64,000 nucleotides of DNA. Source: Gammaproteobacteria bacterium. Lineage in GTDB: Bacteria > Pseudomonadota > Gammaproteobacteria > Pseudomonadales > Porticoccaceae. The stretch's first letter is position 1. Each line of letters opens with the position of its first letter. The position numbers and the translations under genes are program-made. The notes beneath the pieces are model-generated. The model was given only the letters and a program-made list of their open reading frames with translations, made no database searches and was not told where the DNA came from. Positions 1,459 through 64,000 of this stretch are shown here, piece after piece. The stretch is from NCBI GenBank assembly GCA_016708925.1, contig JADJET010000003.1:82465-146464 (forward strand), written 5' to 3'.

Positions 1459-1550
1459 ATTTATTTACCTCTGGCAGCTTGCGAAACTTGGACTTCCCGA
1501 CTTAAGGACACTTCCAAAAATCCATTTTTCGTCGGTCCCGCGCAGTGCCT

Positions 1551-1619: not shown

Positions 1620-1654
1620 GACGATCATTCTCAGAACGTCGTTAATTTTAGAGC

Positions 1655-2869: not shown

Positions 2870-2927
2870 CGTCACATTCCCATACTTTTCGTTTTTCGTT
2901 TTTCGCCCGGAAAATGCGCGGACGGCT

Positions 2928-4142: not shown

Positions 4143-4199
4143 GCCCCTGCCCTCGTTGCAATCGGTTGTAATGTGCGGCTACGGGTTCCGATGCCGCCC

Positions 4200-37707: not shown

Positions 37708-37741
37708 CCAACAAACCACCCCTCCACGAGATGAGTGACGG

Positions 37742-38344: not shown

Positions 38345-38382
38345 GCCGCCACTCATTGCCACGCCCCGGAACCCGCCTCGCC

Positions 38383-39333: not shown

Positions 39334-39435
39334 ACGGCCAGGGCCGAGCGCGAAACCGCCACCGTGCCAATGCTAAACTCGCACCCTCGACCACGCGCGT
39401 CCTGTGCATCACGCCATTCCGACCGGTTCCATTCC

Positions 39436-41304: not shown

Positions 41305-42047
41305 CGCACGGTCTCCATCGCCGCGCGTTCGGGGGCCTGTCCGTTCCGTCGCCAACACAGGGCAACGCGATAACCCGGGATGTCCGCCACCCGCCGCCGC
41401 TGCCAACCGGCCACGATTGTCGCCGCGATGGCGCTGGATTCCGGATCGGAAAATCCCGCCAGGCCGTAGCCGAGCGCTTTGAAATACGCTTCCCGCGCGG
41501 TCCAGATATCGTAAAACGCTGCGCACTGCGCGGTACCCGACAAGCTACCGAGCGCCGCGCATTCGTCGGCGGAAAAAAAACGCCGCGCCAGCGCCGGCAA
41601 CCGATCCCTCGGCGCGACATGTTCCACGTCCACGCCAAGTTCACACTGCCAACCCAGCGCGCAGACCACCAGATCCGCGCTGTGGGACAGGTTGAATGCC
41701 AGCGGCAGCGCGGGCCAGACGAGCGCGGGCTTGCCGCGTCGGTCGCGCGCAAACCGCCAGTCCGCCAGCGGCAGCGGATAGCGCCGGGAGAGCGCCCCGC
41801 GCAACAGCAGCCGCGCCAGCACGGCCCGGTGCCGATCGGCGGGATCGGCGAAGCGCACGCAATGCGCTGCTTCAGCACTGGAGAGAAGTGCGCGGCTCGT
41901 CCGGGACTTCAGGACATCGGAACATGCGCTAGGTCGTGCCAGCCACAACTGGACCGCGCCGTCGGCAAAACTTCGATACGGCTGTTCCGGCAATCCGGGA
42001 AGATTCGGACAGGCAGCCGGCACAATATCAGCCGCAAGAAACCTCAA
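41259..42047 (-). CDS. Sfp-type 4'-phosphopantetheinyl transferase
   Basis: 262 aa. GKPAL, FNLSHS, GVDVE and WTAREAYFKALG motifs. TTG start overlaps the upstream stop (TTGA). The 3' end overlaps convergent sulfotransferase 2 by 46 nt. Confidence 0.75.
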   Translation of the reverse strand: MRFLAADIVPAACPNLPGLPEQPYRSFADGAVQLWLARPSACSDVLKSRTSRALLSSAEAAHCVRFADPADRHRAVLARLLLRGALSRRYPLPLADWRFARDRRGKPALVWPALPLAFNLSHSADLVVCALGWQCELGVDVEHVAPRDRLPALARRFFSADECAALGSLSGTAQCAAFYDIWTAREAYFKALGYGLAGFSDPESSAIAATIVAGWQRRRVADIPGYRVALCWRRNGQAPERAAMETVRYPAATPVAGAGAAS

Positions 42048-42760
42048 AAACGCTGCACCTGTTTGCCGACGATGCGATCGCGAATCCGCCAGTAGAGTGT
42101 GTCCGGATTCACCACCACGATGAACACGCGGCGCAGACGGCCTTCGGGACAGGTGATCGGCTGCACCGCGTGCCAGCAGTGGTCGGTGCGCTGGAAGAGC
42201 GTCGATTGATTGCCGATAAATGGCGCCTCCTGGATGGCGACGAATTCCTCCAGTGCCGGCGCCGAGTCGTAATTCAGGCGCCCGGCATCATCGAGGATCA
42301 AGGTGCCGCCGCCCCACTCCGGCAGCCAGTCGCCCTCGGGGTTGAAGTAGAAAAGCTGGGAGCCATATTCGCGCCTGGCATCGCAATGGGGCGAAACCGA
42401 ACACCCGGTCGGTGTGTAATGCCAGTGGAACCGGAAAGTAGGCCGTCCACAGCGAAACAGCCGCGCGATCTGTTCGCGGTAACCGGAGTTGCACAGCTCG
42501 TCGATAAAGGCGCGCCAGGGCGCCGGCACCGGGGTATCGGGCGTGAATTCGAGGGAGTAGCGGTCGTGAGGCGCCTGGCCCGCACGGCGCCGATAACCGA
42601 CTTTTTGTTCGAACAGATCGAGCCCGGGCATGTTCGCGAGCAGCGCGGCGTAACCCTCGGGCGTCACCAGATCCGCCATACCGAGCCAGGGAAAAGGTTT
42701 GCGCCGGGCGAAATCCGCGGCATCGACGGCCGCGAGTTTGTCGAGAGCGAGATAGCGCAT
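42044..42760 (-). CDS. 2OG-Fe(II) oxygenase-like protein
   Basis: 238 aa. HxD...H facial-triad candidates (SPHCDA ... HCWHAV) in the context YFNPEGDWLPEWGGGTLILDD ... R.VFIV, typical of prolyl-hydroxylase-like 2OG oxygenases. Confidence 0.55.
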   Translation of the reverse strand: MRYLALDKLAAVDAADFARRKPFPWLGMADLVTPEGYAALLANMPGLDLFEQKVGYRRRAGQAPHDRYSLEFTPDTPVPAPWRAFIDELCNSGYREQIARLFRCGRPTFRFHWHYTPTGCSVSPHCDARREYGSQLFYFNPEGDWLPEWGGGTLILDDAGRLNYDSAPALEEFVAIQEAPFIGNQSTLFQRTDHCWHAVQPITCPEGRLRRVFIVVVNPDTLYWRIRDRIVGKQVQRF

Positions 42761-42763
42761 GGT

Positions 42764-43741
42764 TCAGGCAGCCTCCAACCGGATTTTGTTCAGGACATCC
42801 AACGCATCGTGGCGCAAGTGATTGCGTGCCATCTCGGCGCGCAACAAGTCTTCGGTTACCGAACCGTTATCGAGACATTCCCGCACCAGCGTGAAAAACA
42901 GCCGCTCCTGGGCCGGGTCCGGGTGGCGGGCGTAGCGGCCGAGCAGCGCGTATTCGCCGAGTAGACGCGCGCGCACCCGGTTGAGCCCGGCGAGCAGGGG
43001 CTTGTCTTTCAGTTTGTCGGCGGGCGTGAAGTCGACCGGGAGCCCGGTTTTCCAGGGCTGGGTGCGGCGTTTGGTGTTGTGGAGCATTTTCGTCTGCGGC
43101 GTGAGGCGATCGAAATCGTTCCACTCGGGCTCCAGCCAGCCGATGTTCTCGGGTCGCTCGTGCGCCAGCACCATCCAGTCCTTGTAGTCGCGCGTGAAAC
43201 TGAACAGTTCACCGAACTCCCGCTCGCAATCCCAGTGCCGCAACCGCGCGCAGTCCAGCAGCATCACGCTGGTGGCCACCTGAAACCCTTTTTCGTCGCG
43301 CCCGGAGCGCCGCCGGCCCATCACCGCCGCGCCCTGCATGTCGCGGGTCAGCAGTTCGTGGATATCGCCGACCGCGAACACATCGGGATCGATCACCACG
43401 GCGCGGCCGCGATACCCGGCGAGTTGCGGCGCCAGGAAGCGCAGCGGCGTGAACGACTGCAGATCGTCCATGCGCCAGGTGCGGGTGGTGCCGCCACGCA
43501 GGAACTCCTGCCCCTCGCGTACGGCCAGGAAGGGATAATCCTTCACATGAATGAATTCCACCGTGAAAGTGTCGGCATGGCGGGAGTTGCGCCTCAGCGC
43601 ATGAGCCGCCACCAGGGCGCCGAGCCACTGCCGGTCATTGGTATGGATGAAGACCCGCAGTTCCTCTGGGGTCCGGGTGTCGCTCGGGGAATTTTCTGCC
43701 ACTGTCATCTGTGCTGTCTCGATTCGCGGGGATTCCGCCAT
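42764..43741 (-). CDS. DXD-motif nucleotide-sugar transferase-like protein (GT8-like), paralog A
   Basis: 325 aa. VFIHTNDRQWLGALVAAHAL, AVVIDPDVFAVGDI (DXD-like) and TSVMLLDCARLRHW resemble GT-A/GT8 blocks. Clear paralog of 46747-47640. Assignment is tentative. Confidence 0.4.
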   Translation of the reverse strand: MAESPRIETAQMTVAENSPSDTRTPEELRVFIHTNDRQWLGALVAAHALRRNSRHADTFTVEFIHVKDYPFLAVREGQEFLRGGTTRTWRMDDLQSFTPLRFLAPQLAGYRGRAVVIDPDVFAVGDIHELLTRDMQGAAVMGRRRSGRDEKGFQVATSVMLLDCARLRHWDCEREFGELFSFTRDYKDWMVLAHERPENIGWLEPEWNDFDRLTPQTKMLHNTKRRTQPWKTGLPVDFTPADKLKDKPLLAGLNRVRARLLGEYALLGRYARHPDPAQERLFFTLVRECLDNGSVTEDLLRAEMARNHLRHDALDVLNKIRLEAA

Positions 43742-43762
43742 CAGGGTGATGCTTAGGAGAAT

Positions 43763-44725
43763 TTACTTGAACAGGCCGCGTCGATGAAGACGCCAGAAGA
43801 AAGCCCAACCGTAAACCAGCGGGTGGCGGCGCACCTTGTCCGGAATCAATACCGGCTGCCCCGAGTGACGCTCGAGCTTCCAGGCCAGGTAATCCAGTCC
43901 GCCGGCAAAGGTGAACAGCGCCTTGGTGAGCCGCAGCAGGGAGCGCACCTTGCCGTGCACGCCGCGCAAGCGCCATGCGATCCGCGCACGCAACCGGGCA
44001 CCCGGCGGGATGGTTGCGGCATAGCATAAGCCCGTCGCATCCTCGACCAGGCGAAATCCATGGGGCAACCGCGCGGCAACCCGTTGGGTGAGGTCGCGGT
44101 AAAAAGGCTCGCCCCAGGCAGCCAGTTCCCGGGTCCGTCCGCCCTGCTCCGCGCGCAGCTCGGTGCCGTAGCTCAGTGCCAGGCTTTGCCGCCAGAGATC
44201 GCTGACCGGGCCTGCGGGCGGCACCAGCGGCAGCGCGCGACTCAACAGAGTGGTTGCGGCCAGTTCCTGGTCCGCCCTGAGCAGATCGCTGTAGTCGGGC
44301 GCACCGGACCGAGCATCGTGTTCCCGCGCATGGACCAGCGCCACCGGCTGGCAGAACCGCCCCCAGAAATAACTCTCGAAAGTGCGCGGCGACAGGCCGC
44401 GCTGAAAATCGGCGCGCGACACCACCGCGTATTTGCATCGCAAGGTGCGACCCTGCTCAGCCACTTCGGCGTAATAGACATTGGGCGGCAACAGCCAGTT
44501 GGCCAGGGTGCGTCCGGCACTCTGACCCGAGTGCCGGTAACCCGACACAATTACATAGAGGTCCACCAGCCCGTCGTGGAAATCGCCGCTGCGCAGGCAG
44601 GAACCGTACAGAATGATGGCGACCACGGCATCGCCGTGGCGTTCGCGCAGCACGGCGAGCAGCGGCGCCAGCGCCTGCTGACCAGCCGGCTCCACCTGCG
44701 TCACGTCCACCACCGGCGACGTCAC
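43763..44725 (-). CDS. Tam41/Mmp37-like nucleotidyltransferase (candidate phosphatidate cytidylyltransferase-type enzyme)
   Basis: 320 aa. ILYGSCLRSGD...DLYVIV (pol-beta NTase-like), then NVYYAEV...CKYAVVS...YFWGRFCQPV. This mirrors the Tam41 GVYFN...KYGVV...YLAGRLQKPV block as I remember it. GTG start overlaps the upstream stop (GTGA). Confidence 0.45.
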   Translation of the reverse strand: MTSPVVDVTQVEPAGQQALAPLLAVLRERHGDAVVAIILYGSCLRSGDFHDGLVDLYVIVSGYRHSGQSAGRTLANWLLPPNVYYAEVAEQGRTLRCKYAVVSRADFQRGLSPRTFESYFWGRFCQPVALVHAREHDARSGAPDYSDLLRADQELAATTLLSRALPLVPPAGPVSDLWRQSLALSYGTELRAEQGGRTRELAAWGEPFYRDLTQRVAARLPHGFRLVEDATGLCYAATIPPGARLRARIAWRLRGVHGKVRSLLRLTKALFTFAGGLDYLAWKLERHSGQPVLIPDKVRRHPLVYGWAFFWRLHRRGLFK

Positions 44726-45696
44726 AGGCGCAGAAACCGCAGCGGCCCGGCCGCCGTGATGACCACGGGACCCGCGGCGCGGGCGACCGCGACGATTTCG
44801 CCATCGAGATTGAAACTGCCGTCCATATCCAGAGCGATGCGCGCTGCCCGCTGGCTATGGTAGCCGGCGTCGGGGACCACGGCACGCCCGGGGCGTCCGC
44901 GCAGGATGCCGGGAAAACTTCTGAGCAAGCGGCGCGCACGACCCTCGATCAGACTCCACTTGAGCGGCCCGGCGCCCTTGCCCCAGAACGGTCGCAAGCC
45001 GAGGAACAGTCGGTCGAGAGTGCTCACCGCCAGAATCAACGCGTCGCATTCCAGCGCCTCGCCAACGTCCGAGCGCACCGCCACCGGTAGTGGCTGCCAG
45101 AACTCGGGGTCGCGGCGCACCAGTCCCCAGAGCGTGCGCACCATGCCCAGACCCAGGCTGAAGTCATCGCGCAGCCCCCGCGCGTGCAGTTCGCGATGAG
45201 CGTAGGCGGTGCCCTGCATGATGACGCCGGTGCCGAAAAACATGCCGTAGCGCGGCGGCTGCGCGCCCGGATCGACCCGCAAGACATGGCGCTCGACGAT
45301 GAGGCCTTCGGTCGCGCAGCCGGTCTCTGCCCAGGCCTGCAAGCGGCGCAGCGCCGTTTGCAGCGAGCCGTAAATCCCCACATCGCCCGCCGTCATGTTG
45401 GCGGTGCCGCCCGGCAGCAGCGCCAGCAGCGGCAAATCGGCTAATGAAAAATGCGCGAACAACTGGGCAAAAACCGCCGCCGCCGTGCCATCGCCGCCGT
45501 TGATCACCAGCAATCGGAGCGGCGCTCCGGCCAGCATCCCGAGTACCCCCGGGATGTCTTCCGCGGCGTCGGTGATGAAGTGGCGAAACCGCGGGTCCCC
45601 ATCCAGTGCCGCCGCCACCACGCCCAGGCGGTCCCGGTTGTGGCCGCTGTTGCGGTTGCTGATGACGGCGATCACCGGCTGCGGATTTCCGGTCAC
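44722..45696 (-). CDS. diacylglycerol kinase catalytic-domain lipid kinase (YegS/LCB5/ceramide-kinase-like)
   Basis: 324 aa. IAVISNRNSG, VINGGDGT, LPGGTANM and C-terminal NLDGE, the DAGK_cat signature. GTG start overlaps the upstream stop. Confidence 0.65.
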   Translation of the reverse strand: MTGNPQPVIAVISNRNSGHNRDRLGVVAAALDGDPRFRHFITDAAEDIPGVLGMLAGAPLRLLVINGGDGTAAAVFAQLFAHFSLADLPLLALLPGGTANMTAGDVGIYGSLQTALRRLQAWAETGCATEGLIVERHVLRVDPGAQPPRYGMFFGTGVIMQGTAYAHRELHARGLRDDFSLGLGMVRTLWGLVRRDPEFWQPLPVAVRSDVGEALECDALILAVSTLDRLFLGLRPFWGKGAGPLKWSLIEGRARRLLRSFPGILRGRPGRAVVPDAGYHSQRAARIALDMDGSFNLDGEIVAVARAAGPVVITAAGPLRFLRL

Positions 45697-46685
45697 TGGA
45701 CGGCAGTATTGCCGGAGGTGTTGCCGGGCATGTTGCCATAGCCGAATACGGGGTCCAGCCCGCCAGCGATCCGCGCATCGATGCGCGCGACTTCTTCATC
45801 GGTGCAGTAGTCACGATAGCCGCCGACCTTGGCGCGACGCACTTTGTAACTGTCCGGATTGTCGCGGTCCCGCGCCGCCAGCCGCCCACCGGTCAGGCGC
45901 AACGGCCCCAGATGCAGCCCACCCTGACTCTCGCGCGCCTTCATCTTGTCGTAAGAGGCGTAGGCCACGGCGTCGCCGACCACCTGTTCGCCCGCCGCGA
46001 CACCCATGAAATCCAGCAGCACCCGCAACTGGTTTTCGGGATCACGGCGCAGATCCTCGTAGCGCAGCACATGCAGGCGCTTGATGTGGGGAATCTCCGC
46101 CGCCCAGGTATTCATGAAGCTCAGTGCGTCGCCGAGACTGCCGCCATAATCGCTCATCAGGTAATCGAATACGCCGATGTCGGAACCGGCCGGTGGATAC
46201 TTGTTGATCTTTTTCTTGTCCGGCTTCATGCGGAATTTCCACTGGAAATAATTCGACACCGAGACATCCCGCGGGTCGCGCACCATCAGCACCACGGGCT
46301 TGTCGTAGAACGGCGCCTTCGAATCCGGCACTCCGGTGAAATCCTTGATGTAGTTGTCGTGGGTAAAAAATATTTTCGGAATCTTCGCATTCAGGTTATG
46401 AAAATTATCGAAACCGAGCACCAGGTTTTCCGGCAGGCGGTACATCAAGCGAAACACCTGGGACAGCATCACCCGCAGCCAGGTGCGCCCGCTCTTGCCG
46501 AACGACACCACCGCGATATCGCAAGCGCGCAGCGTCGCGTACTGTTCCGCGCCCCGCAGTTTGCGCTCCTCCACCAGGCGCGCGCCTTCGTCCAGGCGGC
46601 GCAGACGCCAGTGCAACAGACGTCGCGAACCCTTTTTGGCGAGGGTGCGGACCAGTTGCCTTGCGCTTTGAATCACAACACTCAT
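45693..46685 (-). CDS. sulfotransferase paralog 3
   Basis: 330 aa. FGKSGRTWLRVMLS, VRDPRDVSVSNYF and NPDSYKVRRAKVGGYRDYCTD, the same three blocks as paralogs 1 and 2. Confidence 0.8.
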   Translation of the reverse strand: MSVVIQSARQLVRTLAKKGSRRLLHWRLRRLDEGARLVEERKLRGAEQYATLRACDIAVVSFGKSGRTWLRVMLSQVFRLMYRLPENLVLGFDNFHNLNAKIPKIFFTHDNYIKDFTGVPDSKAPFYDKPVVLMVRDPRDVSVSNYFQWKFRMKPDKKKINKYPPAGSDIGVFDYLMSDYGGSLGDALSFMNTWAAEIPHIKRLHVLRYEDLRRDPENQLRVLLDFMGVAAGEQVVGDAVAYASYDKMKARESQGGLHLGPLRLTGGRLAARDRDNPDSYKVRRAKVGGYRDYCTDEEVARIDARIAGGLDPVFGYGNMPGNTSGNTAVQ

Positions 46686-46746
46686 GAGGATATCCGGTGA
46701 CGAAGAGCAGCGTTAACGGTCAGCGGTGGGAACCGCCTTACCCGGC

Positions 46747-47640
46747 TCAGGTGGCTGTCCGTGCCAGCACTTCAAAAGCATCCGGGCGCAAGTGGTGGCG
46801 GGCGATTTCGTCGCGCAGGCGGGCGGCATCGACGACATTGCGATCCATGCATTCGCGCAGCAGCCCGAAAAAAAACCGCTCCTGCGCGGGGTCCGGGTGC
46901 TGCCGGTAGCTGCCGGCGAAGCGATAGTCGCCAAACAGCGCCCGGCGGGCGCGCCGCAACCAGTGCCGCGGTGGAAACAGGCGAAAGCTGTCGGCGGGGC
47001 GGAAATCGACCTTGAGCCCCGTCTTCCAGGGCTGCGTCCAGCGCTTGGTGTTGTGGAGCATCTTGGTCTCGGCCGTGAGGTGGTCAAAGTCGTTCCAGAC
47101 ATCTTCCAGCGGGCCGATGCTGGCGCGGTCCTCCAGGCGCAGGGAAATCCAGTCCATGTAATCGCGTGCGCCGCTGAACAGCGCGGCGAAATCGCGCTCC
47201 AGGTTCCAGTGCCGCAGTTTTTCGCAGTCGAGCAGCATCACGCTCGACGCAAAGGCGCCGCGCCTGCCCTTGTTGCCGGACTTGGGGCGACACAGGATCG
47301 CCTTGCCGCCCATGTCACGCGACAGCAGATCCCAGACATCGCCGACCGCGAACACATCCGGATCGATCACCAGCGCGCGACCGCGATAGTTCATCAGCTC
47401 CGGCGGCGCAAAGCGCAACGGCGTGAACGACTGGAGATCGTCGTTGACCCAGGGACGCCATTCGCCGGAGCGGCGATACAACTGCCCTTCCCGGCTCTGC
47501 AGGCTTGGAAAATCAGCGGCATTCATCGGCCGAATGTCGAATTTTTCGTTGTGACGGGAGTTGCGGCGCAGCGCATATTCCGCCACCACGGCACCCAGCG
47601 ACTGCCTGTGATTGCTCTGGATGAAAACGCAATGGTCCAC
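46747..47640 (-). CDS. DXD-motif nucleotide-sugar transferase-like protein (GT8-like), paralog B; first gene of the minus-strand operon
   Basis: 297 aa, GTG start 47638-47640. Collinear with paralog A (ALVIDPDVFAVGDV, SSVMLLDCEKLRHW, MLHNTKRWTQPWKTGL, HPDPAQERFFF). Confidence 0.4.
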   Translation of the reverse strand: MDHCVFIQSNHRQSLGAVVAEYALRRNSRHNEKFDIRPMNAADFPSLQSREGQLYRRSGEWRPWVNDDLQSFTPLRFAPPELMNYRGRALVIDPDVFAVGDVWDLLSRDMGGKAILCRPKSGNKGRRGAFASSVMLLDCEKLRHWNLERDFAALFSGARDYMDWISLRLEDRASIGPLEDVWNDFDHLTAETKMLHNTKRWTQPWKTGLKVDFRPADSFRLFPPRHWLRRARRALFGDYRFAGSYRQHPDPAQERFFFGLLRECMDRNVVDAARLRDEIARHHLRPDAFEVLARTAT

Positions 47641-50338: not shown

Positions 50339-51172
50339 CTATTCGACAGAGCTCGGAAGCTTGCGCAATGAGTAAACATCGAACCGTGTGGTTTTTCCGG
50401 TAACCGCAAAGGTGGGTTCGCGCCCGGCAAGCGGGGCCGCGTGGCGAGCGCGCTTTACCACCACCCGGTACTGCGCCCGCTCAAGAGCTAACTCCAAGAG
50501 CTCGTCCCCGTCGTGGTCGGCACCAACCAGACGCTGTAGAACCTGCATTTCTTTGCGTACCAAGGCGCTTTTGTGACGCTCCGGAAACATCGGGTCGAGA
50601 CAGATTACATCAGGCTGATCGGCGGTCGCCAACCAGATCCGAGCATCTGCGGCGACCAATGACATACGTTCGACCGCCGCCCGGATTCCAACGTTCGAGC
50701 TCTCCTGCCGGGCGCGGCGCAAACCGTCTTCCAGCAGGGCTGCAACGACGGGATGCCGCTCGACCATGACCACCCGCGCACCCAATCCTGCCAGTACGAA
50801 GGCATCCTCACCCAACCCCGCCGTAAGGTCCGCTATCAGCAGTTCAGACGTGTGCTTGATGCCTGCCGCGCGCGCGATTGCCTGGCCCACACCGCCGCCA
50901 TGATGATACCGATGTCGGATGCGACCGCCGGTAAAATCGCAGACGATGGCTCCGAAGTGGCCTTCGGAACTGAGCAACGCGAGGCCTTCACCACTGAGAC
51001 TCAGGATGAAGGGTGTTATGTTCTGGGCCGCGACCCCGGGACCCAGGAACGCCAGCCCCAAACTCCTGGCGAGCTCCCTCCCAGCCGCCAGATTGAGACG
51101 GTCGGCGGCGACGACAACCAGCGGGACTGAGCTCGGGATCACGGCTGGGCCCGCCGACAGATCACGCGGCAC
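50339..51172 (-). CDS. rsmJ: 16S rRNA (guanine1516-N2)-methyltransferase RsmJ-like class I SAM methyltransferase
   Basis: 277 aa (GTG start; the N-terminus may be shorter). LIADLTAGLGEDAFVLAGLGARVVMVERHP SAM-binding block, DVICLDPMFP and YRVVVKR, as in the RsmJ/DUF548 family. Confidence 0.72.
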   Translation of the reverse strand: MPRDLSAGPAVIPSSVPLVVVAADRLNLAAGRELARSLGLAFLGPGVAAQNITPFILSLSGEGLALLSSEGHFGAIVCDFTGGRIRHRYHHGGGVGQAIARAAGIKHTSELLIADLTAGLGEDAFVLAGLGARVVMVERHPVVAALLEDGLRRARQESSNVGIRAAVERMSLVAADARIWLATADQPDVICLDPMFPERHKSALVRKEMQVLQRLVGADHDGDELLELALERAQYRVVVKRARHAAPLAGREPTFAVTGKTTRFDVYSLRKLPSSVE

Positions 51173-51389
51173 AGACTTGCACCATGTTCAAAAACACAAC
51201 GCCGTCAACGTTTAATCTCGGCATTCCGAGTCTCCAGATCAAGACGGCAAAAACCGCAGGGATGGTCAATGAGCGATATCCCGGCGGCAACGTGGCGATC
51301 GCGCTCCGTGGCCGTGCAAGCCGTTGATCCTAGCCTTTCGGGGCCGGCTGCGGCTAGAATGCAGATCACAGTTTGAGAGGCCCGGGCCG

Positions 51390-51824
51390 ATGCGGCTATT
51401 CCTGTTTTTTGCGTTGGGGCCGATGCTCATTGCTGCCGGGTGCGGCCGGTACGAAGTCACCCTCAACGATCAGCCACTCCACAGCTTGCCGCGTCTCTTC
51501 ACAGACTATCGTATTGACGACCCAGCACTGCGCGATTGCGTCGCCCAAACCATTCGCGACAACAAAATTGCCGCCGGCCACGATCTCACCCGTCTGCTGT
51601 GTACCCACGCCGGCATTGTGGATCTCAGGGGACTGGAGATTTTCGGGTCGCTGGAAATCCTGAATCTGGCGGACAACAACATAACCACCATCGAGCCGCT
51701 ACTTTCACTGCCTTCCCTCGCGCAGCTCGACCTAAGCGCCAATCCCGGTCTCAATTGCACAGAGGGAGGCGCCTTGACGACCCGCGGCGTTGTTGTTGTA
51801 CTGCCGGCGCAGTGCCAGAAATAG
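51390..51824 (+). CDS. leucine-rich repeat lipoprotein
   Basis: 144 aa from MRLFLFFALGPMLIAAGC (lipobox). LRR units LRGLEIFGSLEILNLADNNITTIEPLLSLPSLAQLDLSANP. Confidence 0.65.
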   Translation: MRLFLFFALGPMLIAAGCGRYEVTLNDQPLHSLPRLFTDYRIDDPALRDCVAQTIRDNKIAAGHDLTRLLCTHAGIVDLRGLEIFGSLEILNLADNNITTIEPLLSLPSLAQLDLSANPGLNCTEGGALTTRGVVVVLPAQCQK

Positions 51825-52195: not shown

Positions 52196-52909
52196 TCAGT
52201 CGAACCGCAATCCCAGCCGCTGACCAATCAGCTCGTAGGACTCCACCACCCGACCCAGGTCCTGACGGAATCGATCCTTGTCCAGTTTTTCCAGCGTATC
52301 GCGATCCCACACCCGGCAACCATCGGGAGTCACCTCGTCACCAAGCATCAACGCGCCGTTCATCAGCCCAAACTCCAGCTTGTAGTCCACCAGCACCATG
52401 CCGCCAGCGAGAAACAGGGGCGTAAGGATGTCGTTGATGCGGAAAGTAAGCTCTTTCATTCGCGCCACTTGCCAGGCTTCAGCCCAACCCAGGCTGTGGA
52501 TGTGGTACTCGTTGACCATGGGATCGCCGAGCGCATCGCTTTTGAGAAAGAATTCAAAGGTCGGCGGGGAGAGTACGCGCCCCTCGTCGATGCCATAGCG
52601 ACGGCACAGACTGCCCGCGGCAAGATTGCGGACCACGCATTCCAACGGCAGCATCGTCAGCCGTTTGACTAGCGTCTCGCGATCATCCAGCAGACGCACG
52701 AAGTGCGTTGGGATACCCGCCACCGCGAGCTTCTCCATGACGAAGGCATTGAACTTGTTATTCACCGACCCTTTGCGTTCCAGCTGCTCACGCTTCTTGC
52801 CGTCGAAGGCGGACGTATCGTCACGAAACAGCATCACCAGATGTTCCGGGTCGTCGGTCGCAAAGACCGATTTGGCCTTGCCGCGATAGAGCTCCTCGCG
52901 TTTTTCCAT
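52196..52909 (-). CDS. purC: phosphoribosylaminoimidazole-succinocarboxamide synthase
   Basis: 237 aa. [18 protein letters not shown] and [10 protein letters not shown] blocks of SAICAR synthetase. Confidence 0.95.
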
Positions 52910-55934: not shown

Positions 55935-56028
55935 AAGCCTCTATAAAAAACACGCCGCACCGGCGCGCGAGGAGCGGCATTCTAGGCAAGCCCCCGGAGG
56001 GGTGTCAACTTGAGTCGCGCGGCACGCG

Positions 56029-57543
56029 TCAACCCTCTGCGCCGGCGTTATCTCCATGCGTGCCCCGCAGCGCCGCAAAGTCCTGCTGCCACTGTTTGAG
56101 CTGCTTTTTCGACGGGCCACCCACATGTGCCAGCGCCGCGCGCAGACGGGCGCGCACCAGATCCGGGCCCAGGATCACCATGCTGTCGAACAGCGGCGGC
56201 GCCGAGGTCGCCCCGGCCACCGCGACATACAGCGGGGCGGTGAAATCCCGCAGTTTGTGGCCCATGGCCACCGCCAGTTCATTCAGCGCCTGATAAATCG
56301 GATCGCGCCGCCAGTCACCGAGCGCTTCGAGCGTCCAGGCGGAAAATTGCAGGATGCGGGCGCAGTCATCGGTGCTGAGCGTCTTGTGGGCGAACGCATC
56401 GGCGCCGAGCGCGGGCAGTCCCGATAACAGAAAGCTGGCGATGGGTGCGATATCGCTGAACTTTTCCACTCGATCCTTGATGAGCGGCACCACGCGTTCG
56501 AGGTGATTGCGGTTCAACGCCCAGGCCGCGACGCGATCCGCGAAAGCCGCATCGTCGAGGTTTTCCCGAATCCAGCGCCCGTTCAGCCAGTCGAGCTTCG
56601 CGGTATCGAAGACGGGACCGCCCAGATGCACCTTGTCGAGATCGAAGTGCGCGAGCATTTCGTCCAGCGTAAATTTCTCGGCTTCGTCCGGCATGGCCCA
56701 ACCCATGCGTCCGAGATAATTGAGCAGGGCTTCCGGCAGATAACCCATCGCCCGATAGTAGTTGATGCTGGTGGGATTCTTGCGCTTGCTGAGCTTGCTC
56801 TGATCGGGATTGCGCAGCAGCGGCAGATGACACAGTTCCGGCATCTGCCAACCGAAATACCGGTACAGCAACTGATGTTTGGGTGCGGAGTTGATCCACT
56901 CCTCACCGCGGATGACGTGAGTGATGCCCATGAGGTGATCGTCCACCACGTTCGCCAGATGATAGGTGGGCAGGCCATCGGCTTTCAGCAACACCTGCAT
57001 GTCGACCTGCGACCAGGCGATCTCGATTTCCCCCCGCAACCGATCCTGCAAGCGGCACACGCCGTCCGCCGGGATCTTCATGCGGATCACATGGGGCTCG
57101 CCCCGCGCCAGCCGCGCCTGTATTTCGGCATCCGTGAGCTGGAGTCCCCGGCCGTCATATTTCGGCGTCTCGCCCCGGGCAAGCTGAGCGCGGCGCATCG
57201 CGTCCAGCTCATCGGGCGTGGCGAAACAGAGAAAGGCGTCGCCCTGGGCCACAAGCTGTTCGGCATAGCCGCGATAGGTATCGCCGCGCTCACTCTGTCG
57301 GTACGGACCGTGTGGACCGCCCACATCCGGGCCTTCGTCCCAGTGCAGCCCGAGCCAGCGCAGGGCATCCAGGATCATGGTTTCCGACGCCGCCGTGCTG
57401 CGCGCGCGGTCCGTATCCTCGATGCGCAGAATGAACTGGCCGCCGTGGCGGCGCGCGAAACAATAATTGAAAAGCGCGATGTAAGCGGTGCCCACATGGG
57501 GATCGCCCGTGGGCGACGGCGCGACGCGGGTACGAACAGTCAT
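56029..57543 (-). CDS. gltX: glutamate--tRNA ligase
   Basis: 504 aa. [16 protein letters not shown] (HIGH region) and KLSKRK (KMSKS). Confidence 0.95.
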
Positions 57544-57595
57544 GGGGCTGTGTCCGAACTTCAGGGGCGCGGATTATAAACCGCAGCTCCCACCG

Positions 57596-59563
57596 TCAGC
57601 GGGGTTCGGGACGACCCAGCAAGAATCCCTGGCCGGCATCGACGCCGAGTCCGGCACAGATGCTCCATTCGGTTTCCTGCTCGATGCCTTCGACCAGCAA
57701 GGGAATCTCCCGGGCCCGCATCAACTCGGCCATGAATTTCAGGTAAAACTGATTATCGCGATGCTGATCGATATCGCGGGTGATGCCCCGGTGGACCTTG
57801 ACATGCGCCAGCGGCAGACTGCCCAGATAAGCAAAATTGGATGATTCCAGCCCGAAGTGATCGAGCGCAAAACCGCTGCCATGGCTGCCCACCAGGCGCT
57901 GAAAGTCGCGCGTCGCACCTTCGGCAACCGCAAGTGCCCGCTCGGGCACCTCAAATACCAGACGGTTGGCGAGCGCCCGATTGACCGCCAGAAACTCACC
58001 CAACCAACCGTGAAAACCAGCCGACTGAACCGACTGGATACTGAGATTCACCGCGTACATCGGCAAATCGAGGTCGGTGCGCGCGGCCAGCAGTTCCAGC
58101 ACCAGGCGATCATAGGCAGCGGCGCGCCCGACCCGCTCCACCATGGGCAGCAACACACCCGCAGCGATGGCGTGCACCCCCGCCTCGGTCCACATCCGGC
58201 TGTAGACCTCGCAGCCGATCAGGTTGCGTCCCGGCACGCCCACCGTGGGCTGATAGAGCAACTCGAGGGCACGCCGCTCCAGCAGGCGCTCGATCAGATC
58301 GATCCAGTCGAAGCCTGGACGCGACACCAGCGGAATCGCACCGGCATCAGCGGCGCCATGGAGAAGGTAATTGGGCGCCGCCCCGGTCGCAACCTGGCGC
58401 AATGCCTGATCCGCTTCCCCCAGCAAATCGGTTTCACGATCGATGGCGGGGCTGTAGCTGTAGCCCATGCGAAACCGCGGCGGAAGTCTTTCCCGGTGCG
58501 GAAAAGCCACGGCTTCGGCGCAGCGCAGCGCGCGCAGCGCCGCCACGCCCGCTTCCCTGGCATCCAGATCAGGGACAAAAACCGCGAATTCGGCGCCCTG
58601 CCGGCGCGCCACCTGGGCTCCGGGATACTGCGCCATTCCTGCCCGCAAGCTATCGCCAATCGCCGCCAGTAAAGCATTGCCCTCCAGGCGACCGGCCAGA
58701 TCGTTAACCCGCGCGAGATCATCCAGCGCAATGATCGCCAGCATCCCACGCCGCGCTTCCATGTCGTCGGCAATGAGAGCGTTCATCCGCGCATCAAAGT
58801 CCGCGCGATTGGCGAGACCCGTCACCGGGTCAACCGCTGCGGCGCGCCGCAGGTCCGCAATCATGCCCGCCTGACTCGCGAACAGCTGACCCAGGCGATG
58901 CGCCATGCGGTTCATGGCATCGACGACGGACCGCAACTCGCGCGCCCGCGGCAACGTTTCCTGGACAACGAACTGCTGCTCGCGAATAGCGTCCGCCTGC
59001 GCTTCGATGCGCCGCAGCGGTCGCAGCAACCAGCGCAAACCGATGATGCCAAGCCCGCAAAGCAGCATTGTGGCCACGGAGAACCACAGCAATTGCTCCC
59101 ATGCCAACTGCCATAGCTGGCAATAGGTCTGGCCCGGATTGCTGACCACCACGACCTCGCCCAAGCGGTTCCAGCCAGTCGATACCTCGGCACGACCGGT
59201 GTACTCGGGCAACGCCATCAGCGCGACAAACCAGTCCGGTATGCCGAGATCCCGTACCGGAAACTCCCTCGCCAAACGAATATCGCCGCCGGGCCCCTGA
59301 AACTGGATCTGCTGGTAATACCCGCCATCGGAAATGGCGTTAAACAGCACTTCCTGGAGCGTCGGATCCGCAGCGATGTCCCCCTGAGACAACGCCAGCG
59401 CAATGGACGTCGCGGCGTCCTGAGCGTGAACCGCCATCTGCTGCTCCACCAGGGCACGCGTATTGGAGAGACTGATCGCGCTGTTGACGCCATACAGCAA
59501 CAGCGTCAGCGTCAGCACGGCCAACACCAACTGTCGAAAAAGAGTCACGCACGCACCTGTCAA
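57596..59563 (-). CDS. lapD: LapD-like inner-membrane c-di-GMP receptor (LapD/MoxY N-terminal domain, HAMP, degenerate GGDEF, EAL-like)
   Basis: 655 aa. Two TM helices flank a periplasmic domain, followed by a HAMP region. The GGDEF position reads RQGAEF and the EAL position reads EVY. Divergent from a LapG-type protease gene. Confidence 0.7.
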   Translation of the reverse strand: MTGACVTLFRQLVLAVLTLTLLLYGVNSAISLSNTRALVEQQMAVHAQDAATSIALALSQGDIAADPTLQEVLFNAISDGGYYQQIQFQGPGGDIRLAREFPVRDLGIPDWFVALMALPEYTGRAEVSTGWNRLGEVVVVSNPGQTYCQLWQLAWEQLLWFSVATMLLCGLGIIGLRWLLRPLRRIEAQADAIREQQFVVQETLPRARELRSVVDAMNRMAHRLGQLFASQAGMIADLRRAAAVDPVTGLANRADFDARMNALIADDMEARRGMLAIIALDDLARVNDLAGRLEGNALLAAIGDSLRAGMAQYPGAQVARRQGAEFAVFVPDLDAREAGVAALRALRCAEAVAFPHRERLPPRFRMGYSYSPAIDRETDLLGEADQALRQVATGAAPNYLLHGAADAGAIPLVSRPGFDWIDLIERLLERRALELLYQPTVGVPGRNLIGCEVYSRMWTEAGVHAIAAGVLLPMVERVGRAAAYDRLVLELLAARTDLDLPMYAVNLSIQSVQSAGFHGWLGEFLAVNRALANRLVFEVPERALAVAEGATRDFQRLVGSHGSGFALDHFGLESSNFAYLGSLPLAHVKVHRGITRDIDQHRDNQFYLKFMAELMRAREIPLLVEGIEQETEWSICAGLGVDAGQGFLLGRPEPR

Positions 59564-59675
59564 AAGGGATGCGGCAGTCTAGCCAAACGTGCGGAGCATT
59601 GCCAAATGCGCGCTCTGTCACAGTTCGGCAGTGACGTCGACGGCACAACCACAGCCCGGTGCTAGCATCCCCCGC

Positions 59676-60365
59676 ATGAGCAAATCCTCCCGTTCAATAC
59701 TGAACTCGGCTGCCAGCCGACGCGGCTGCACGCTGCTGTTGATATGCGCTTGCGTTCTGCTAGGAAATACGACCCACGCCGACCCGGCACTGGTCGACTG
59801 GAACGAATCAACTCGGTTTGATGACTGGTATATGCAGGGCGATGCGGCCCGGCTGCAACGCTGGAGAGATATTATCGCCAGCGGTCAGCACCTGGATGAA
59901 GCGGAAAAATTGAGTCTGGCAAACGATTTCTTCAACGGCGCCCGCTTCGTGTCCGACGCGGAGCTCTACGGTGTCGCGGATTACTGGGCAACGCCCACCG
60001 AATTCATCGCGCGCGACGCCGGCGACTGCGAGGATTTCGCCATCGCCAAGTACTTCACGCTGAAAGCGATGGGCATGGATGTCGCCAAACTGCGCATAAC
60101 CTATGTGAAGTCGCTGACGCTGGATCAGGCCCACATGGTGTTGGCCTATTACCCGACACCGGATGCGGAACCGCTGATTCTCGACAACCTCAATCGCCTC
60201 ATCAAGTCGGCCGGCCAGCGTCGCGACTTGCGTCCGGTGTACAGCTTTAACGCCGAGGCGCTGTGGCTCTCACGCACCCGCAACGAGCAGATCAAGACCG
60301 GAAGCCCCTCGCAGCTGAACCAATGGCGCCAGATGGTGGCGCGCCTGGACCCTGAATTGCGTTAA
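59676..60365 (+). CDS. lapG: transglutaminase-like cysteine peptidase (BTLCP/DUF920, LapG-like)
   Basis: 229 aa from MSKSSRSIL (ATG 59676). Signal peptide, catalytic-Cys context ARDAGDCEDFAIAKYFTL, and HMVLAYY...LILDN. Confidence 0.75.
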   Translation: MSKSSRSILNSAASRRGCTLLLICACVLLGNTTHADPALVDWNESTRFDDWYMQGDAARLQRWRDIIASGQHLDEAEKLSLANDFFNGARFVSDAELYGVADYWATPTEFIARDAGDCEDFAIAKYFTLKAMGMDVAKLRITYVKSLTLDQAHMVLAYYPTPDAEPLILDNLNRLIKSAGQRRDLRPVYSFNAEALWLSRTRNEQIKTGSPSQLNQWRQMVARLDPELR

Positions 60366-60405
60366 ACCACCGCTGCCGCCCCATGACCGTGGCCGACGAC
60401 GCTGG

Positions 60406-61197
60406 TTACGCGGGAACACTCGCAACACCAGCAACTATGTCGAGCACGCGCAATTCCTCGAGGAGTTGCACACCGCCTGCGACCACGGCGTCGACATCCT
60501 CCCGTCCCAGCTCATCGGCAATCTGTCGCAACACGGCGGCGCCGGTGCCGCCTGCCACCGGTGGTGCGGACTGCAACAGATCCAGCAGGCGGGCAGTGAC
60601 CGCATTGGCTTCCAGGAATTTCACCTCGTCGCCGCGATTGCGGTACACCACCAAAAACGTGGGCTGCGGCGGCGGCGCGGCCGGCTGATACGTCTGCCCC
60701 AGCCGATGCACGGGATAGCGGTAGGAAAGGCTCCACGCCAGCGGTGACACCAGCGGCCGCCCGCACAGCAAATCTCCCGCGGGATCGACGCCGACCTCTG
60801 GATAGTCGATCTCCGCCACCTCCAGCGCGAGCTCCACCCACTCGTAATGCGCCAGCTCCAGCAGGAAATCGGGATCGCCGACGGCGGGTTCGTATTCGTT
60901 CTGAAGATACGTGATGAATTCGCGGCCGATCTCGAGAAAATACGGCGATTCCGCACGATGCCGAACCATGAAGTCTCGCACCAGGACATCGGTGCGCGCC
61001 GGTCCCAGGATATCGCACAGTACCGGGAAACCACTGCGGATAAAGCCGGCGATGTTGTTGAAAACAAGCTCCCGGTAAATCCGCACACGCCGCGGTTCGA
61101 CGCCGGGCGGCGCCGGATTGCGATCCGGATCGCGCAGATGCGCGACAAACTGGCGCTGCACGCGCCGAAACTCCGGCAATGCAGCGCAATCGCTCAT
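60406..61197 (-). CDS. hvfC: DUF2063 protein, HvfC/MbnC-like RiPP maturation partner
   Basis: 263 aa. [12 protein letters not shown]...YRELVFNNI...L..FP N-terminal DUF2063 block. ATGA overlap with the upstream DUF692 gene. Confidence 0.7.
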
Positions 61198-62048
61198 GCC
61201 GTCACCACAGCCAGGCGCCGCGCAGCCAAAGTCGCCGTCTGGATCGCGCCGATCTTGGCGACTTCCGCCAGGAGCAGTTCCACCGGCGGGATATTGAAGT
61301 CGCGCTCAAGCAGCGTCGGAAAAACCCCAAAGCGCCGATAGGCCGATTGCAGCAGCGCCCACACCGGGTCGATCACGTCGGCACCGTGGGTATCCACGAG
61401 CAGATCCTCGGCTTCGACGAAATGGCCGGCGATATGGCCGTAGGCAATGCGCGCGCCGGGAATCTGCGCCAGGAACGCTTCCGGGTCGTAACCGTGATTG
61501 ACGCTGTTGACATAGACATTGTTGATGTCGAGCAGCAGATCGCAATCCGCTTCAATCAATACCGCGTTGAGAAATTCGATCTCGCTCATGTCGCACAGCG
61601 GCGCGGCATAGTAGGAGACGTTTTCGATTGCGATGCGGCGTTCGAGCATATCCTGCACCTGGCGGATACGCGCCGCCACATGGTGGACGGCTTCGGCGGT
61701 AAACGGCATCGGGAGCAAGTAGTAGAGGTGGCCCTGATCGCTACAGTAGCTCAGGTGTTCGGAGTAAGAGAGGACACGATGGCGCCGGAGAAATTCCTTG
61801 ATCCCGGCGAGCAGCTCCCGGTCAAGCGCATCGGCGGAACCCAGGGAGAGGGACAAGCCGTGACAGACGAAGGGAAAGCGCTCGGTATACTCCGCCAGTT
61901 GGCGCCCCAACCGGCCACCGACACGCATCCAGTTCTCGGGCGCGACCTCCAGAAACTGCACGTCCGCGGCGGTGCGGGACGACAGCGGACCCAGTAGGGT
62001 CCGCCGCAGCCCCAGACCGGAACCCGCCAGCGGGATCGCGGCCGACAT
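61194..62048 (-). CDS. hvfB: DUF692 (UPF0276) multinuclear non-heme iron oxidative enzyme, HvfB/MbnB-like
   Basis: 284 aa from [16 protein letters not shown] (ATG 62046-62048). [26 protein letters not shown] and [10 protein letters not shown] blocks of the TIM-barrel DUF692 family. Confidence 0.8.
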
Positions 62049-62056
62049 GTCAGGAC

Positions 62057-62401
62057 TCAGGGCTTGACGTCGGAGCCCGCCGGTTTGGTGTCGGACTCCG
62101 CGGCCTGGCCTTCCGCGTCGGCTTTGGCCGCTGCTTTGCCGCCTCCACACTTGCCCTCGCCGGCCGTCTTGGCCTTCTCCCCGCCACAATTGCCCTCGTG
62201 CGCTTTCTTCATACTTTCGCCACACTTGCCCTCACCGCACTTGCCCTCGGTCATGGCCTTCTCGGCGAGGTTGTAGCCGCCACTGAGGCTGTTGGCGTGA
62301 AAGGGATTTTCGGCCGCCCGCGCCAGGGGCGCCAGTGCTACCGATGCGAGGAAAGCGGCGCCGACGGCTGCAGCAATGGGGTTTTTCGTCTGTGTTGCCA
62401 T
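62057..62401 (-). CDS. hvfA: secreted EGKCG-repeat RiPP precursor (HvfA-type metallophore precursor)
   Basis: 114 aa. Sec signal [29 protein letters not shown], then [14 protein letters not shown] and four Cys in [11 protein letters not shown]...EGNCGG...EGKCGG, with a low-complexity K/A/E tail. Confidence 0.75.
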
Positions 62402-62433
62402 GATGGATATCCTTTGGTTGTTGGCGCCAGATC

Positions 62434-62460
62434 ATTGGTGCCAGGTTTATTGGTGCCAAG
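62434..62460. promoter_or_regulatory. tandem near-palindromic repeats ATTGGTGCCA(G/A)G upstream of hvfA
   Basis: Copies at 62434-62445 and 62449-62460 (15-bp register), 33-60 nt upstream of the hvfA ATG. The core TTGGTGCCAA is a near-perfect palindrome. Confidence 0.3.
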
Positions 62461-62620
62461 TCATCGGCTCAGTGTTGGTCGCCGTGACGGCCACTCCCTT
62501 ACACGCAGGGGCCGCAGGTATGATTGACGCCGCAAGGGAAAGTTGCAACCGCACCCGCCAGCAAAGCGAAGCCGGCGCCTGCGCTATCATTGCCGCCCCT
62601 CAAAAAGGCGGCCGCGCTCC

Positions 62621-63094
62621 GTGTCAGCCGAATCCGTATCTACCGCTGTAACCAGTCACTACGCTGCGCTCCCCGCGGCCCCGCTCTGGCGCCGCCTCGC
62701 GGCGCTGGTCTACGACGGCCTGCTGCTGATTGCGCTGGGTTTTGCGTACAGCGGAATTATCTTGACGGTTCAGGCGCAATTTTTCGGCGCCCGTGAGGCA
62801 CAGCCGCTGGGCGGACCTGGGCTTGCGGGGCTGTGGCTGTGCCTGTCGCTGTATTACATCTGGTGCTGGCGCCGCGCCGGCCAGACGCTGGGCATGAAAA
62901 CCTGGCGGCTGCGGCTGCAACGGCCGGACGGCAGCCCGCCCACCTGGCGCCAAGCCTGGCTGCGCTGCCTGCTGGCACCGTTGTCGCTGGTTTCGGTGGT
63001 GGGTTATCTGTGGTGCCTGTGGAGTCGCTCCGGGGATTGCCTGCACGATCTCGGCAGCGGGACGCGTCTGGTGGTGCTGCCGAAATCCCGTTAG
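62621..63094 (+). CDS. RDD family membrane protein
   Basis: About 157 aa from GTG 62621 (start uncertain; the track ORF starts at 62543). PLWRRLAALVYDGLLL, GQTLGMKTWRLRL and HDLGSGTRLV fit the RDD family pattern. Confidence 0.7.
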   Translation: MSAESVSTAVTSHYAALPAAPLWRRLAALVYDGLLLIALGFAYSGIILTVQAQFFGAREAQPLGGPGLAGLWLCLSLYYIWCWRRAGQTLGMKTWRLRLQRPDGSPPTWRQAWLRCLLAPLSLVSVVGYLWCLWSRSGDCLHDLGSGTRLVVLPKSR

Positions 63095-63123
63095 TCGCCC
63101 GACTTTCATTACCGCCGCGGCGG

Positions 63124-64000
63124 TCAGGCCGCTCGGCGCAACAACACCAATCCCACCGCAAGGCAAACGAGCACAGGCGCCATCACCGCCCAGAAGGGCG
63201 CAAATCCGAACACCAGGCTCGAAGGGCCGAGCAGCTTCAGGCTGGTCTGAAACACCACGCCGACCAGCACGCCGGAAAACACCCGGAATCCGGTGGTGGA
63301 TTCCCGCAGCGGTCCGAACACGAAAGATACCGCGACCAGCAACAGGCTGAAAATGACCGCCGGTTGCAGAACCTTGGACCAATAGGCGAGCTGGTATGCG
63401 CCCGCTTGCAGGCCCTGGCGTTCCAGGTAATCGGCATAGCTGCCCAACCGGCGCATCGGCAGCGCATCCGGCGCCATCATCGTCAGGGTGAGCAGATCCG
63501 GCGAGAGATCGGTGTCCCAGCGGCGGGTCGCGAAGCGGTCGGTCTCGGTGGCGGTGTCGTTCAGACGCGTGATGACGCCATCCTCCTCGACCCAGTGATC
63601 GCCGCGAAAATTGGCGCGCGCCGCGAAACTCGCTTCCCGCAGCCGGTAGTCGGCGTCAAAACGGTAACGCGCGACTCCCGCCAAATGCCCACCGGGATAG
63701 ATGGCGTTGAAGTGTATGAACTCATCGCCCTCGCGATTCCACACGCCGCTGCGCGCCGAAAAAGTTTCCTTCTCGCCGAGCAATGCCATTTTGCGGCTCT
63801 CGGCCCACTGTCCCGACACCGGCACCACAAATTCGCCGAGCAGACCGCCGACGACGATCAGCAGCAGCACGGGCCGCGCCGCGAAACCCGCGATCCGCAG
63901 CAGTGATACGCCCGCCGTGCGCATCACGACCAGTTCGCTGCTGCCGGCCAGACTGCCCAGGCCGACCAGGGCACCGATCAGCACGGCGAATGGCAGGCTG
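63124..64000 (-). CDS. lptG: LPS export ABC transporter permease LptG (N-terminus beyond window end)
   Basis: C-terminal 290+ aa. SELVVMRTAGVS, the periplasmic beta-jellyroll region, and a C-terminal TM bundle matching the YjgP/YjgQ family. Confidence 0.85.
   Translation of the reverse strand, partial: SLPFAVLIGALVGLGSLAGSSELVVMRTAGVSLLRIAGFAARPVLLLIVVGGLLGEFVVPVSGQWAESRKMALLGEKETFSARSGVWNREGDEFIHFNAIYPGGHLAGVARYRFDADYRLREASFAARANFRGDHWVEEDGVITRLNDTATETDRFATRRWDTDLSPDLLTLTMMAPDALPMRRLGSYADYLERQGLQAGAYQLAYWSKVLQPAVIFSLLLVAVSFVFGPLRESTTGFRVFSGVLVGVVFQTSLKLLGPSSLVFGFAPFWAVMAPVLVCLAVGLVLLRRAA

Follow-up and report, generated by a model that had tools for sequence, protein, structure and literature searches.

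A DoxX-less hvfABC cluster in an uncultured wastewater gammaproteobacterium, probably encoding a copper-buffering EGKCG-repeat peptide

Captophorin clusters are among the most populous classes of RiPPs (peptides that are synthesized ribosomally and then modified post-translationally), with more than 20 000 present in RefSeq (PMC13097082), and a separate survey catalogues about 2000 precursors of the Buf_EGKCG/oxazolin type (PMC12452194). Oxazolin, fontiphorin, gonophorin and bulbicupramide come from four EGKCG systems whose expression and characterisation have been reported, and copper binding has been shown for each of these products. Here, we describe a cluster of this class, hvfABC (mmrABC or fonABC in other species), in a stretch of 64 000 nucleotides (positions 82,465 to 146,464 of contig JADJET010000003.1, hereafter the window) from an uncultured wastewater Porticoccaceae-like gammaproteobacterium. 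The cluster very probably encodes a captophorin, a periplasmic peptide that would buffer copper. The view in an earlier note on this DNA, that few members of the class had been studied and none from this lineage, is outdated given the large catalogues and the work on mmrABC of Microbulbifer, a genus that is among the named relatives of the precursor (PMC12538549).

The products of homologous clusters were first assigned as oxazolone/thioamide (PMC11252979), and for MNIO enzymes with a DUF2063 (PME-type 1) partner the assignment has been changed to 5-thiooxazole by two groups (PMC13097082; bioRxiv 10.64898/2026.06.05.730506). Conversion of Cys to 5-thiooxazole has been shown for homologues (PMC13097082, PMC12538549, bioRxiv 10.64898/2026.06.05.730506) and is marked by the loss of 4 Da, absorbance near 302–305 nm and an alkylatable thiol. 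The oxazolone/thioamide chemistry that the earlier note had proposed for the Cys residues has to be replaced for this branch, while the loss of 4 Da per Cys and absorbance near 302–305 nm remain the expected signs. Fontiphorin, gonophorin and oxazolin carry 5-thiooxazoles on their EGKCG repeats, and fontiphorin and gonophorin bind copper (PMC13097082). In the closest studied system, Microbulbifer mmrABC, one –4 Da modification is found per EGKCG Cys and the product, bulbicupramide, binds Cu(I) (PMC12538549). Bufferins share the 5-thiooxazole chemistry and buffer periplasmic copper (PMC11626156, PMC12452194). Partners of the HvfC type bind the precursor and thereby bring the MNIO into its active mixed-valent diiron state (bioRxiv 10.64898/2026.07.17.739211).

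In the window, the genes for the precursor, the MNIO and the partner are adjacent and co-oriented (Table 1). The stop codon of hvfA is separated from the hvfB start codon (ATG at 62048) by 8 nt, and the hvfB stop codon overlaps the hvfC start codon in an ATGA sequence at 61194–61197. The trio is present in every related locus examined, and the gene order is common to 11 of these loci; an arrangement kept this widely is not due to chance. A precursor of identical sequence, with the same gene order, was found in two NCBI metagenome-assembled genomes (MAGs; GCA_016712905.1 and GCA_016718945.1) and in two ENA assemblies, and the DNA runs with this locus come from metagenomes of activated sludge, wastewater and anaerobic digesters.

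Table 1. Features of the hvfABC locus (positions in the window)
Feature	Position	Strand	Basis
hvfA, 114-aa precursor for a peptide of the oxazolin/captophorin type with EGKCG repeats	62057..62401	-	Open reading frame; NF050137; 148 homologues
hvfB, MNIO (DUF692) multi-iron oxidase, 284 aa	61194..62048	-	PF05114; NF003818; match to 3BWW
hvfC, DUF2063 N-domain and NGO1945_C (RRE-like) partner, 263 aa	60406..61197	-	PF09836, PF22106; NF050145; match to 3DEE
Putative Sec-type signal peptide, residues 1-29 of HvfA	62315..62401	-	Read from the sequence; alignment of homologues
Conserved N-terminal block of HvfA, N32-P-F..L39..G42-Y43	62273..62308	-	Alignment
HvfA core, residues 52-86, with double cassette (C55, C60) and isolated EGNCG (C72) and EGKCG (C85)	62144..62248	-	Motif reading
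Promoter-like element upstream of hvfA, TTGCAA-N17-AATCAT	62520..62548	-	Conservation; function inferred
Probable 5' untranslated region, about 90-110 nt, with TGGCACCAA-type tandem repeats (62420-62470) and ribosome-binding site AAAGGA	62402..62513	-	Sequence reading

HvfB matched PF05114 (MbnB_TglH_ChrH) with an E value of 1e-102 and scored 426.4 bits against the HvfB model NF003818, above its cutoff of 360. It fell below the cutoffs of the models for BufB (NF050167, 264.8 against 310 bits), ApyH, ChrH and MbnB (TIGR04159, 42.8 against 325 bits). The enzyme also matched 3BWW, the diiron-containing HvfB homologue of Histophilus somni (E 1e-76), and in that alignment the metal ligands H63, H98, E142, D174, N177, H205, D219, H221 and E248 are all kept, within the motifs HGLS, EHLS, ENVS, LDINN, HIAGH, VDTHG and LERDF. 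N177, D219 and H221 are the counterparts of N175, D242 and H244 of HvfB, and mutation of these residues inactivates that enzyme (bioRxiv 10.64898/2026.07.17.739211). HvfC matched PF09836 (E 4e-24) and PF22106 (E 1e-30), labelled HvfC_N and HvfC_C in newer Pfam, and scored 301.5 bits against the HvfC model NF050145 (cutoff 142). It also matched the Neisseria NGO1945 structure 3DEE (E 4.5e-9).

The public records name the three products only as hypothetical protein, DUF692 domain-containing protein and putative DNA-binding domain-containing protein. Such generic names would be compatible with HvfA being an unmodified low-complexity periplasmic protein, with HvfB and HvfC inactive or acting elsewhere. 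However, HvfB keeps its full set of catalytic ligands, translational coupling joins the genes, and across the clade strong purifying conservation is seen in the three genes as well as in the Cys motifs, which makes this explanation barely credible.

A search with the precursor recovered 148 homologues at E≤1e-3. The nearest are from wastewater and groundwater metagenomes, in MAGs labelled Gammaproteobacteria or Porticoccaceae, and the more distant ones are from Microbulbifer, Gilvimarinus, Cellvibrionaceae, Porticoccus and Halioxenophilus, with several of these already annotated as 'HvfA family oxazolone/thioamide-modified RiPP metallophore'. HvfA scored 31.5 bits against NF050137 (cutoff 19.5), the HvfA-family domain model KCGExKCG_twice, and 32.4 bits against NF050188, the narrow equivalog for Haemophilus HvfA, which has a cutoff of 95. 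In Pfam, no match to the precursor was found, including to DUF2282 or Buf_6/12Cys. As NF003818, NF050145 and NF050137 all passed their curated cutoffs, the assignment in the earlier note to an HvfA/HvfB/HvfC-type MNIO RiPP cluster was upheld. Its reading of the gene layout (a 114-aa precursor followed after 8 nt by a DUF692 enzyme and then by an ATGA-coupled DUF2063 protein) was borne out by the open reading frames, their spacing and the Pfam matches, and the sequence and alignment agreed with its placing of four Cys only within EG(K/N)CG motifs and of an NPF...GY leader-like block. Its description of the sequence held throughout.

By inspection, the N-terminus of HvfA has a basic n-region (K6), a hydrophobic h-region and a candidate cleavage site at A27-R28-A29|A30, and cleavage by signal peptidase I is predicted after A29. 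This region aligns with the signal peptides of the homologues; in an alignment of 30 of them the h-region is at least 90% conserved and M1, A12, G14, A16 and A19 are invariant. Removal of the signal peptide has been observed experimentally for a homologous HvfA (PMC11252979). The other invariant columns are those of the E-G-x-C-G motifs and of the NPF..L..GY block at residues 32–43 (N32, P33, F34, L39, G42 and Y43), which was found in 115 of 120 homologues. By analogy with studied systems, this block is likely to be the recognition region for the RiPP recognition element (RRE)-like domain of HvfC and to be retained on the mature peptide (PMC12538549, PMC11252979).

HvfA contains exactly four Cys residues, C55 and C60 in a double cassette, C72 in an EGNCG motif and C85 in an EGKCG motif. 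The linker ESMKKAH separates the double cassette from EGNCG, and the C-terminal tail of 28 residues is acidic and free of Cys. The four-Cys layout, the linker and the tail are conserved in the immediate clade (P0001–P0015). The 120 homologues have between 2 and 9 Cys per precursor, most often 6, which places HvfA at the low end; the motifs in these sequences total 607 EGKCG, 36 EGSCG and 23 EGNCG. An AlphaFold model built on the HvfA alignment had a mean pLDDT of 48 and no strands, and HvfA is predicted to be disordered. A β-helix, reported for mid-size Buf_EGKCG family members (PMC12452194), was rejected for HvfA on the same grounds.

Two further features of the precursor were seen among its relatives. 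In the ESMKKAH linker (window 62198–62215, residues 63–68), most members of the close clade retain the Met and the His, two residues that could, judging from the sequence, be additional soft-metal ligands. Near-identical precursors (89–96% identity) were found to gain or lose whole cassettes, with P0004 having an extra cassette (6 Cys, 124 aa) and P0007 one EGKCG fewer (3 Cys, 109 aa), and the repeat number is therefore strain-variable.

Like Microbulbifer mmrABC (PMC12538549), the cluster consists of only three genes, for the precursor, the MNIO and the DUF2063 partner, and lacks both DoxX and a protease, and in both precursors a conserved N-terminus, made up of a signal-like stretch and the NPF..L..GY block, is followed by EGKCG units. 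HvfB and HvfC are 67% and 50% identical, respectively, to their orthologues in Microbulbifer thermotolerans. The systems differ in that MmrA has 5–8 Cys in regular double-EGKCG cassettes, whereas HvfA has four Cys, two of them in isolated sites, and an acidic tail. They also differ in location, with flanking lapG and RDD-family genes here and hrpA and mlaA in Microbulbifer. The hvfABC(X) operon of Haemophilus influenzae (oxazolin; PMC11252979, bioRxiv 10.64898/2026.06.05.730506), on which the NCBIfam Hvf models were built, likewise combines a Sec signal, EGKCG-type motifs, an HvfB-family MNIO and an HvfC partner. However, it includes a DoxX gene (hvfX) that is missing here, and its precursor has three repeats and an N-terminal disulfide pair (C38/C43), whereas HvfA in the window has no N-terminal Cys. 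The fonABC cluster of Fontimonas thermophila (fontiphorin) and the ngo cluster of Neisseria gonorrhoeae (gonophorin) share the pairing of an MNIO with a PME-type 1 partner and the EGKCG repeats, and FonA has seven modification sites compared with four candidate sites in HvfA.

The bufferins Buf1 (DUF2282) and Buf2 (PMC11626156, PMC12452194) also have Sec-type precursors and a closely related MNIO and DUF2063 partner. The cluster in the window is nonetheless not a bufferin cluster, given the BufB score below the cutoff and a precursor without DUF2282 or Buf_6/12Cys. Buf1 clusters are often accompanied by sigma/anti-sigma and DoxX genes, and none are found here.

Methanobactin clusters (mbnABC) likewise use an MNIO-type enzyme that oxidises Cys to a copper-binding heterocycle, and this shared Cys chemistry, together with the Cu(I) binding of the characterised homologues (PMC11252979, PMC12538549), raises the possibility of a chalkophore, a modified peptide released from the cell to acquire copper. 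However, HvfB belongs to a different MNIO subfamily, as seen from its low score against the MbnB equivalog, the partner is a DUF2063 protein rather than MbnC, and the precursor carries a Sec signal and EGKCG repeats; mbnABC systems have an oxazolone/thioamide product, a leader peptide and dedicated export and uptake machinery. MbnA, MbnC, an MbnT-type TonB receptor, a MATE exporter and a leader protease were not found in the window, and the Sec signal peptide and the 85-aa product point to periplasmic residence. The cluster is not of the methanobactin type and a role as a chalkophore is very unlikely.

In the mechanism we propose for a copper-buffering captophorin, HvfA would be translated with its Sec signal peptide and, before export, its N-terminal region (the h-region and/or the NPF..L..GY block) would be bound by the RRE-like C-domain of HvfC. 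HvfC would present the flexible core to HvfB, an O2-dependent MNIO with a presumed mixed-valent diiron cluster in its active form, and HvfB would oxidise each E-G-x-C-G Cys by four electrons (–4 Da) to 5-thiooxazole. The modified peptide would then be exported by Sec and cut after A29 to release a disordered periplasmic peptide of 85 residues. With up to four thiooxazole thiolate/N ligands, the mature peptide would bind approximately two Cu(I), and periplasmic copper would be buffered. Such a Sec-exported multi-site metal-binding product, with its Cys modification, the number of sites used and its copper binding, is extrapolated from the characterised homologues, whereas gene content, family membership, ligand residues, operon coupling, conservation and in-situ transcription were established for the locus itself.

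Upstream of hvfA, TTGCAA, the 17-nt spacing and AAT[C/G]AT are conserved in all seven of the clade loci compared, while the sequence of the spacer and the distance to the ATG (72–118 nt) vary. This is the pattern expected from a sigma-70-type promoter, and the element probably serves as one. RNA from hvfA was assembled in six metatranscriptomes from wastewater, bioreactor and biofilm samples, representing at least three studies. The contigs that were aligned in full to the window span positions 62129–62492 with a word depth of 2–12, depth being a crude measure of expression, and coverage of hvfB is weak. All five hvfA contigs that reach upstream end at 62460–62492, just downstream of the proposed –10 sequence. 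In the four of the six runs that were compared over positions 56000–64000, hvfA was the only part assembled except for a single 34-nt piece of a contig that was mostly unrelated. Coverage that is uneven and limited to hvfA suggests an origin in RNA and not in contaminating DNA, with an hvfA message that is comparatively abundant in situ, whereas expression of mmr was undetected in Microbulbifer culture.

Other candidates for control of hvfA were considered. A second sigma-70-like sequence, TTGGCA-17-AATGAT (62459–62431), lacks conservation, and of the five RNA contigs for hvfA three (those beginning at 62473, 62488 and 62492) begin upstream of it; the element at 62548–62520 is therefore preferred. 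A sigma-54 promoter formed by the TGGCAC repeats at 62428–62458 was rejected, as there is no TTGC at the required spacing and the repeats are limited to close relatives, being absent from two of the related loci (L010 and L011). For an RpoE or extracytoplasmic function (ECF)-type reading of GCAACTT...TCA the spacing is ambiguous, and this reading is neither supported nor excluded. A riboswitch or structured 5' untranslated region was rejected, as the region had no Rfam match at E≤1, the single-sequence fold had a z-score of –0.58 and the consensus fold had only 4 pairs (–1.8 kcal/mol).

The probable 5' untranslated region was also found to contain TGGCACCAA/TGGCGCCAA sequences repeated in tandem every 14–16 nt (62420–62470). 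The window and one related locus (L004) have one extra 15-nt copy compared with a groundwater MAG that is 95% identical (L001). The TGGCACCAA-type repeats occur in close relatives only, and more distant ones lack them.

Several observations weigh against a copper-buffering peptide that is modified at all four sites. In vitro, a substrate that had only one EGKCG repeat was left unmodified by FonBC, and for this reason the isolated C72 and C85 may be poor substrates. The third site varies in close homologues, where it is EGNCS or EGNCA. The conserved promoter-like element has an ordinary 17-nt spacer and no MerR-type signature, and a Pfam scan of essentially all large open reading frames in the window revealed no genes for a copper-responsive regulator, copper efflux or oxidases. 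In Microbulbifer, expression of mmr could not be detected, including under copper stress, and a role in protection was not demonstrated (PMC12538549). As to the EGNCG motif itself, FonBC accepts A, R or T at the third position of the motif and requires a small residue (Gly or Ala) at the fifth, which makes EGNCG plausible as a substrate.

The lack of copper genes or regulators nearby, and the apparently strong transcription of hvfA in ordinary wastewater and bioreactor communities with no known copper stress, would also fit a peptide with thiooxazole thiols that serve mainly in redox or oxidative-stress protection of the envelope, or that bind another soft metal. MNIO-PME1 clusters have been tied to both oxidative stress and metals, and their metal specificity and role are stated to be open (PMC13097082). 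However, every characterised member binds copper (PMC11252979, PMC12538549, PMC13097082) and bufferins protect against copper stress (PMC11626156, PMC12452194). A main role other than copper buffering is therefore unlikely, and copper buffering is the function we favour.

The window is part of the core chromosome and includes genes for pyruvate dehydrogenase E1 and E2 and an M16 peptidase as well as tolQRAB-pal-cpoB, ruvABC, aspS, proS, purC, dapA, bamC, gltX and lptG. No DoxX, ECF sigma factor or anti-sigma factor gene was found in the Pfam scan, in agreement with the earlier note. DoxX is also absent from all of the related loci examined, and its absence is thus normal for the clade and not a peculiarity of this locus. 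The trio is flanked by a divergent RDD-family gene on one side and, on the other, by a convergent lapG followed by lapD. The order hvfABC-lapG-lapD-gltX is kept in the Porticoccaceae-like loci (L004–L011), even where the upstream flank has changed.

This conserved order could indicate that the cluster is tied to the LapG/LapD cyclic di-GMP biofilm switch, one possibility being that LapG has HvfA as a substrate or modulator, and an A-A-A-V stretch in HvfA resembles the di-alanine motif recognised by LapG. However, lapG is convergent with hvfC and therefore not co-transcribed with it. The A-A-A-V stretch lies inside the h-region and is conserved to the same degree in Microbulbifer, Cellvibrionaceae and Halioxenophilus, whose loci have no lapG or lapD nearby. 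Because the trio is located between hrpA and mlaA in Microbulbifer, in Halioxenophilus and in a Cellvibrionaceae MAG, inherited synteny is the simplest reading of the adjacency. A functional link was rejected as highly improbable.

The flanking genes themselves were as follows. The gene at 62543–63094 encodes an RDD-family membrane protein; in related records its product is shorter (157 aa), leaving an intergenic region of approximately 219 bp that contains the hvfA promoter-like element. LapG, a BTLCP cysteine protease, is encoded directly downstream of hvfC (59589–60365, plus strand) and LapD, a GGDEF-EAL cyclic di-GMP receptor, at 57596–59563 (minus strand). No gene for a LapA-like giant adhesin was found in the window.

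Further from the trio, four consecutive paralogous genes for coenzyme A-transferase family III proteins (PF02515, E approximately 1e-108 to 1e-114) are located at 217–5426 on the minus strand. A group of genes at 35364–47640 includes two for sulfotransferases (40093–41304 and 45693–46685) together with genes for an AMP-binding enzyme, a 4'-phosphopantetheinyl transferase, a lipid A-type acyltransferase, a diacylglycerol kinase-like protein and a protein with a weak match to 2-oxoglutarate-Fe(II) oxygenases, as well as several open reading frames with no Pfam match. This may be a sulfated lipid or glycolipid locus. An open reading frame of 166 aa at 51324–51824, between an rsmJ-like gene (50339–51172) and purC (52196–52909), has matches to the leucine-rich-repeat families LRR_4 and LRR_8, which are uncommon in bacteria.

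The identification of the cluster in the earlier note was correct, and the hvfABC trio is an ordinary representative of a well-described and very common class for which curated models exist. With all three genes in curated families and the near relative mmrABC of Microbulbifer already reconstituted, the trio itself holds little discovery value; for annotation, the analysis supplies family names for genes that lack them in public MAG records. What is new here is the conserved promoter-like element, hvfA as the sole transcript assembled from an 8-kb stretch in four of six metatranscriptomes, and a precursor at the low end of the range, with four sites and predicted disorder. The RNA data provide environmental evidence that a DoxX-less EGKCG cluster is transcribed in situ, and address a point left open by the Microbulbifer study. 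With its isolated motifs and Asn variant, HvfA is a natural test case for whether HvfBC-type enzymes need tandem repeats. We give a small but real chance to a more specific proposal, that HvfA is a minimal four-site disordered captophorin with a Met/His linker, expressed constitutively and at a high level from an ordinary sigma-70-type promoter and not induced by copper. If this were so, isolated single E-G-x-C-G sites could be processed in vivo, and a housekeeping role in the envelope would be indicated, for instance the continuous buffering of copper or redox state in sludge rich in metals.

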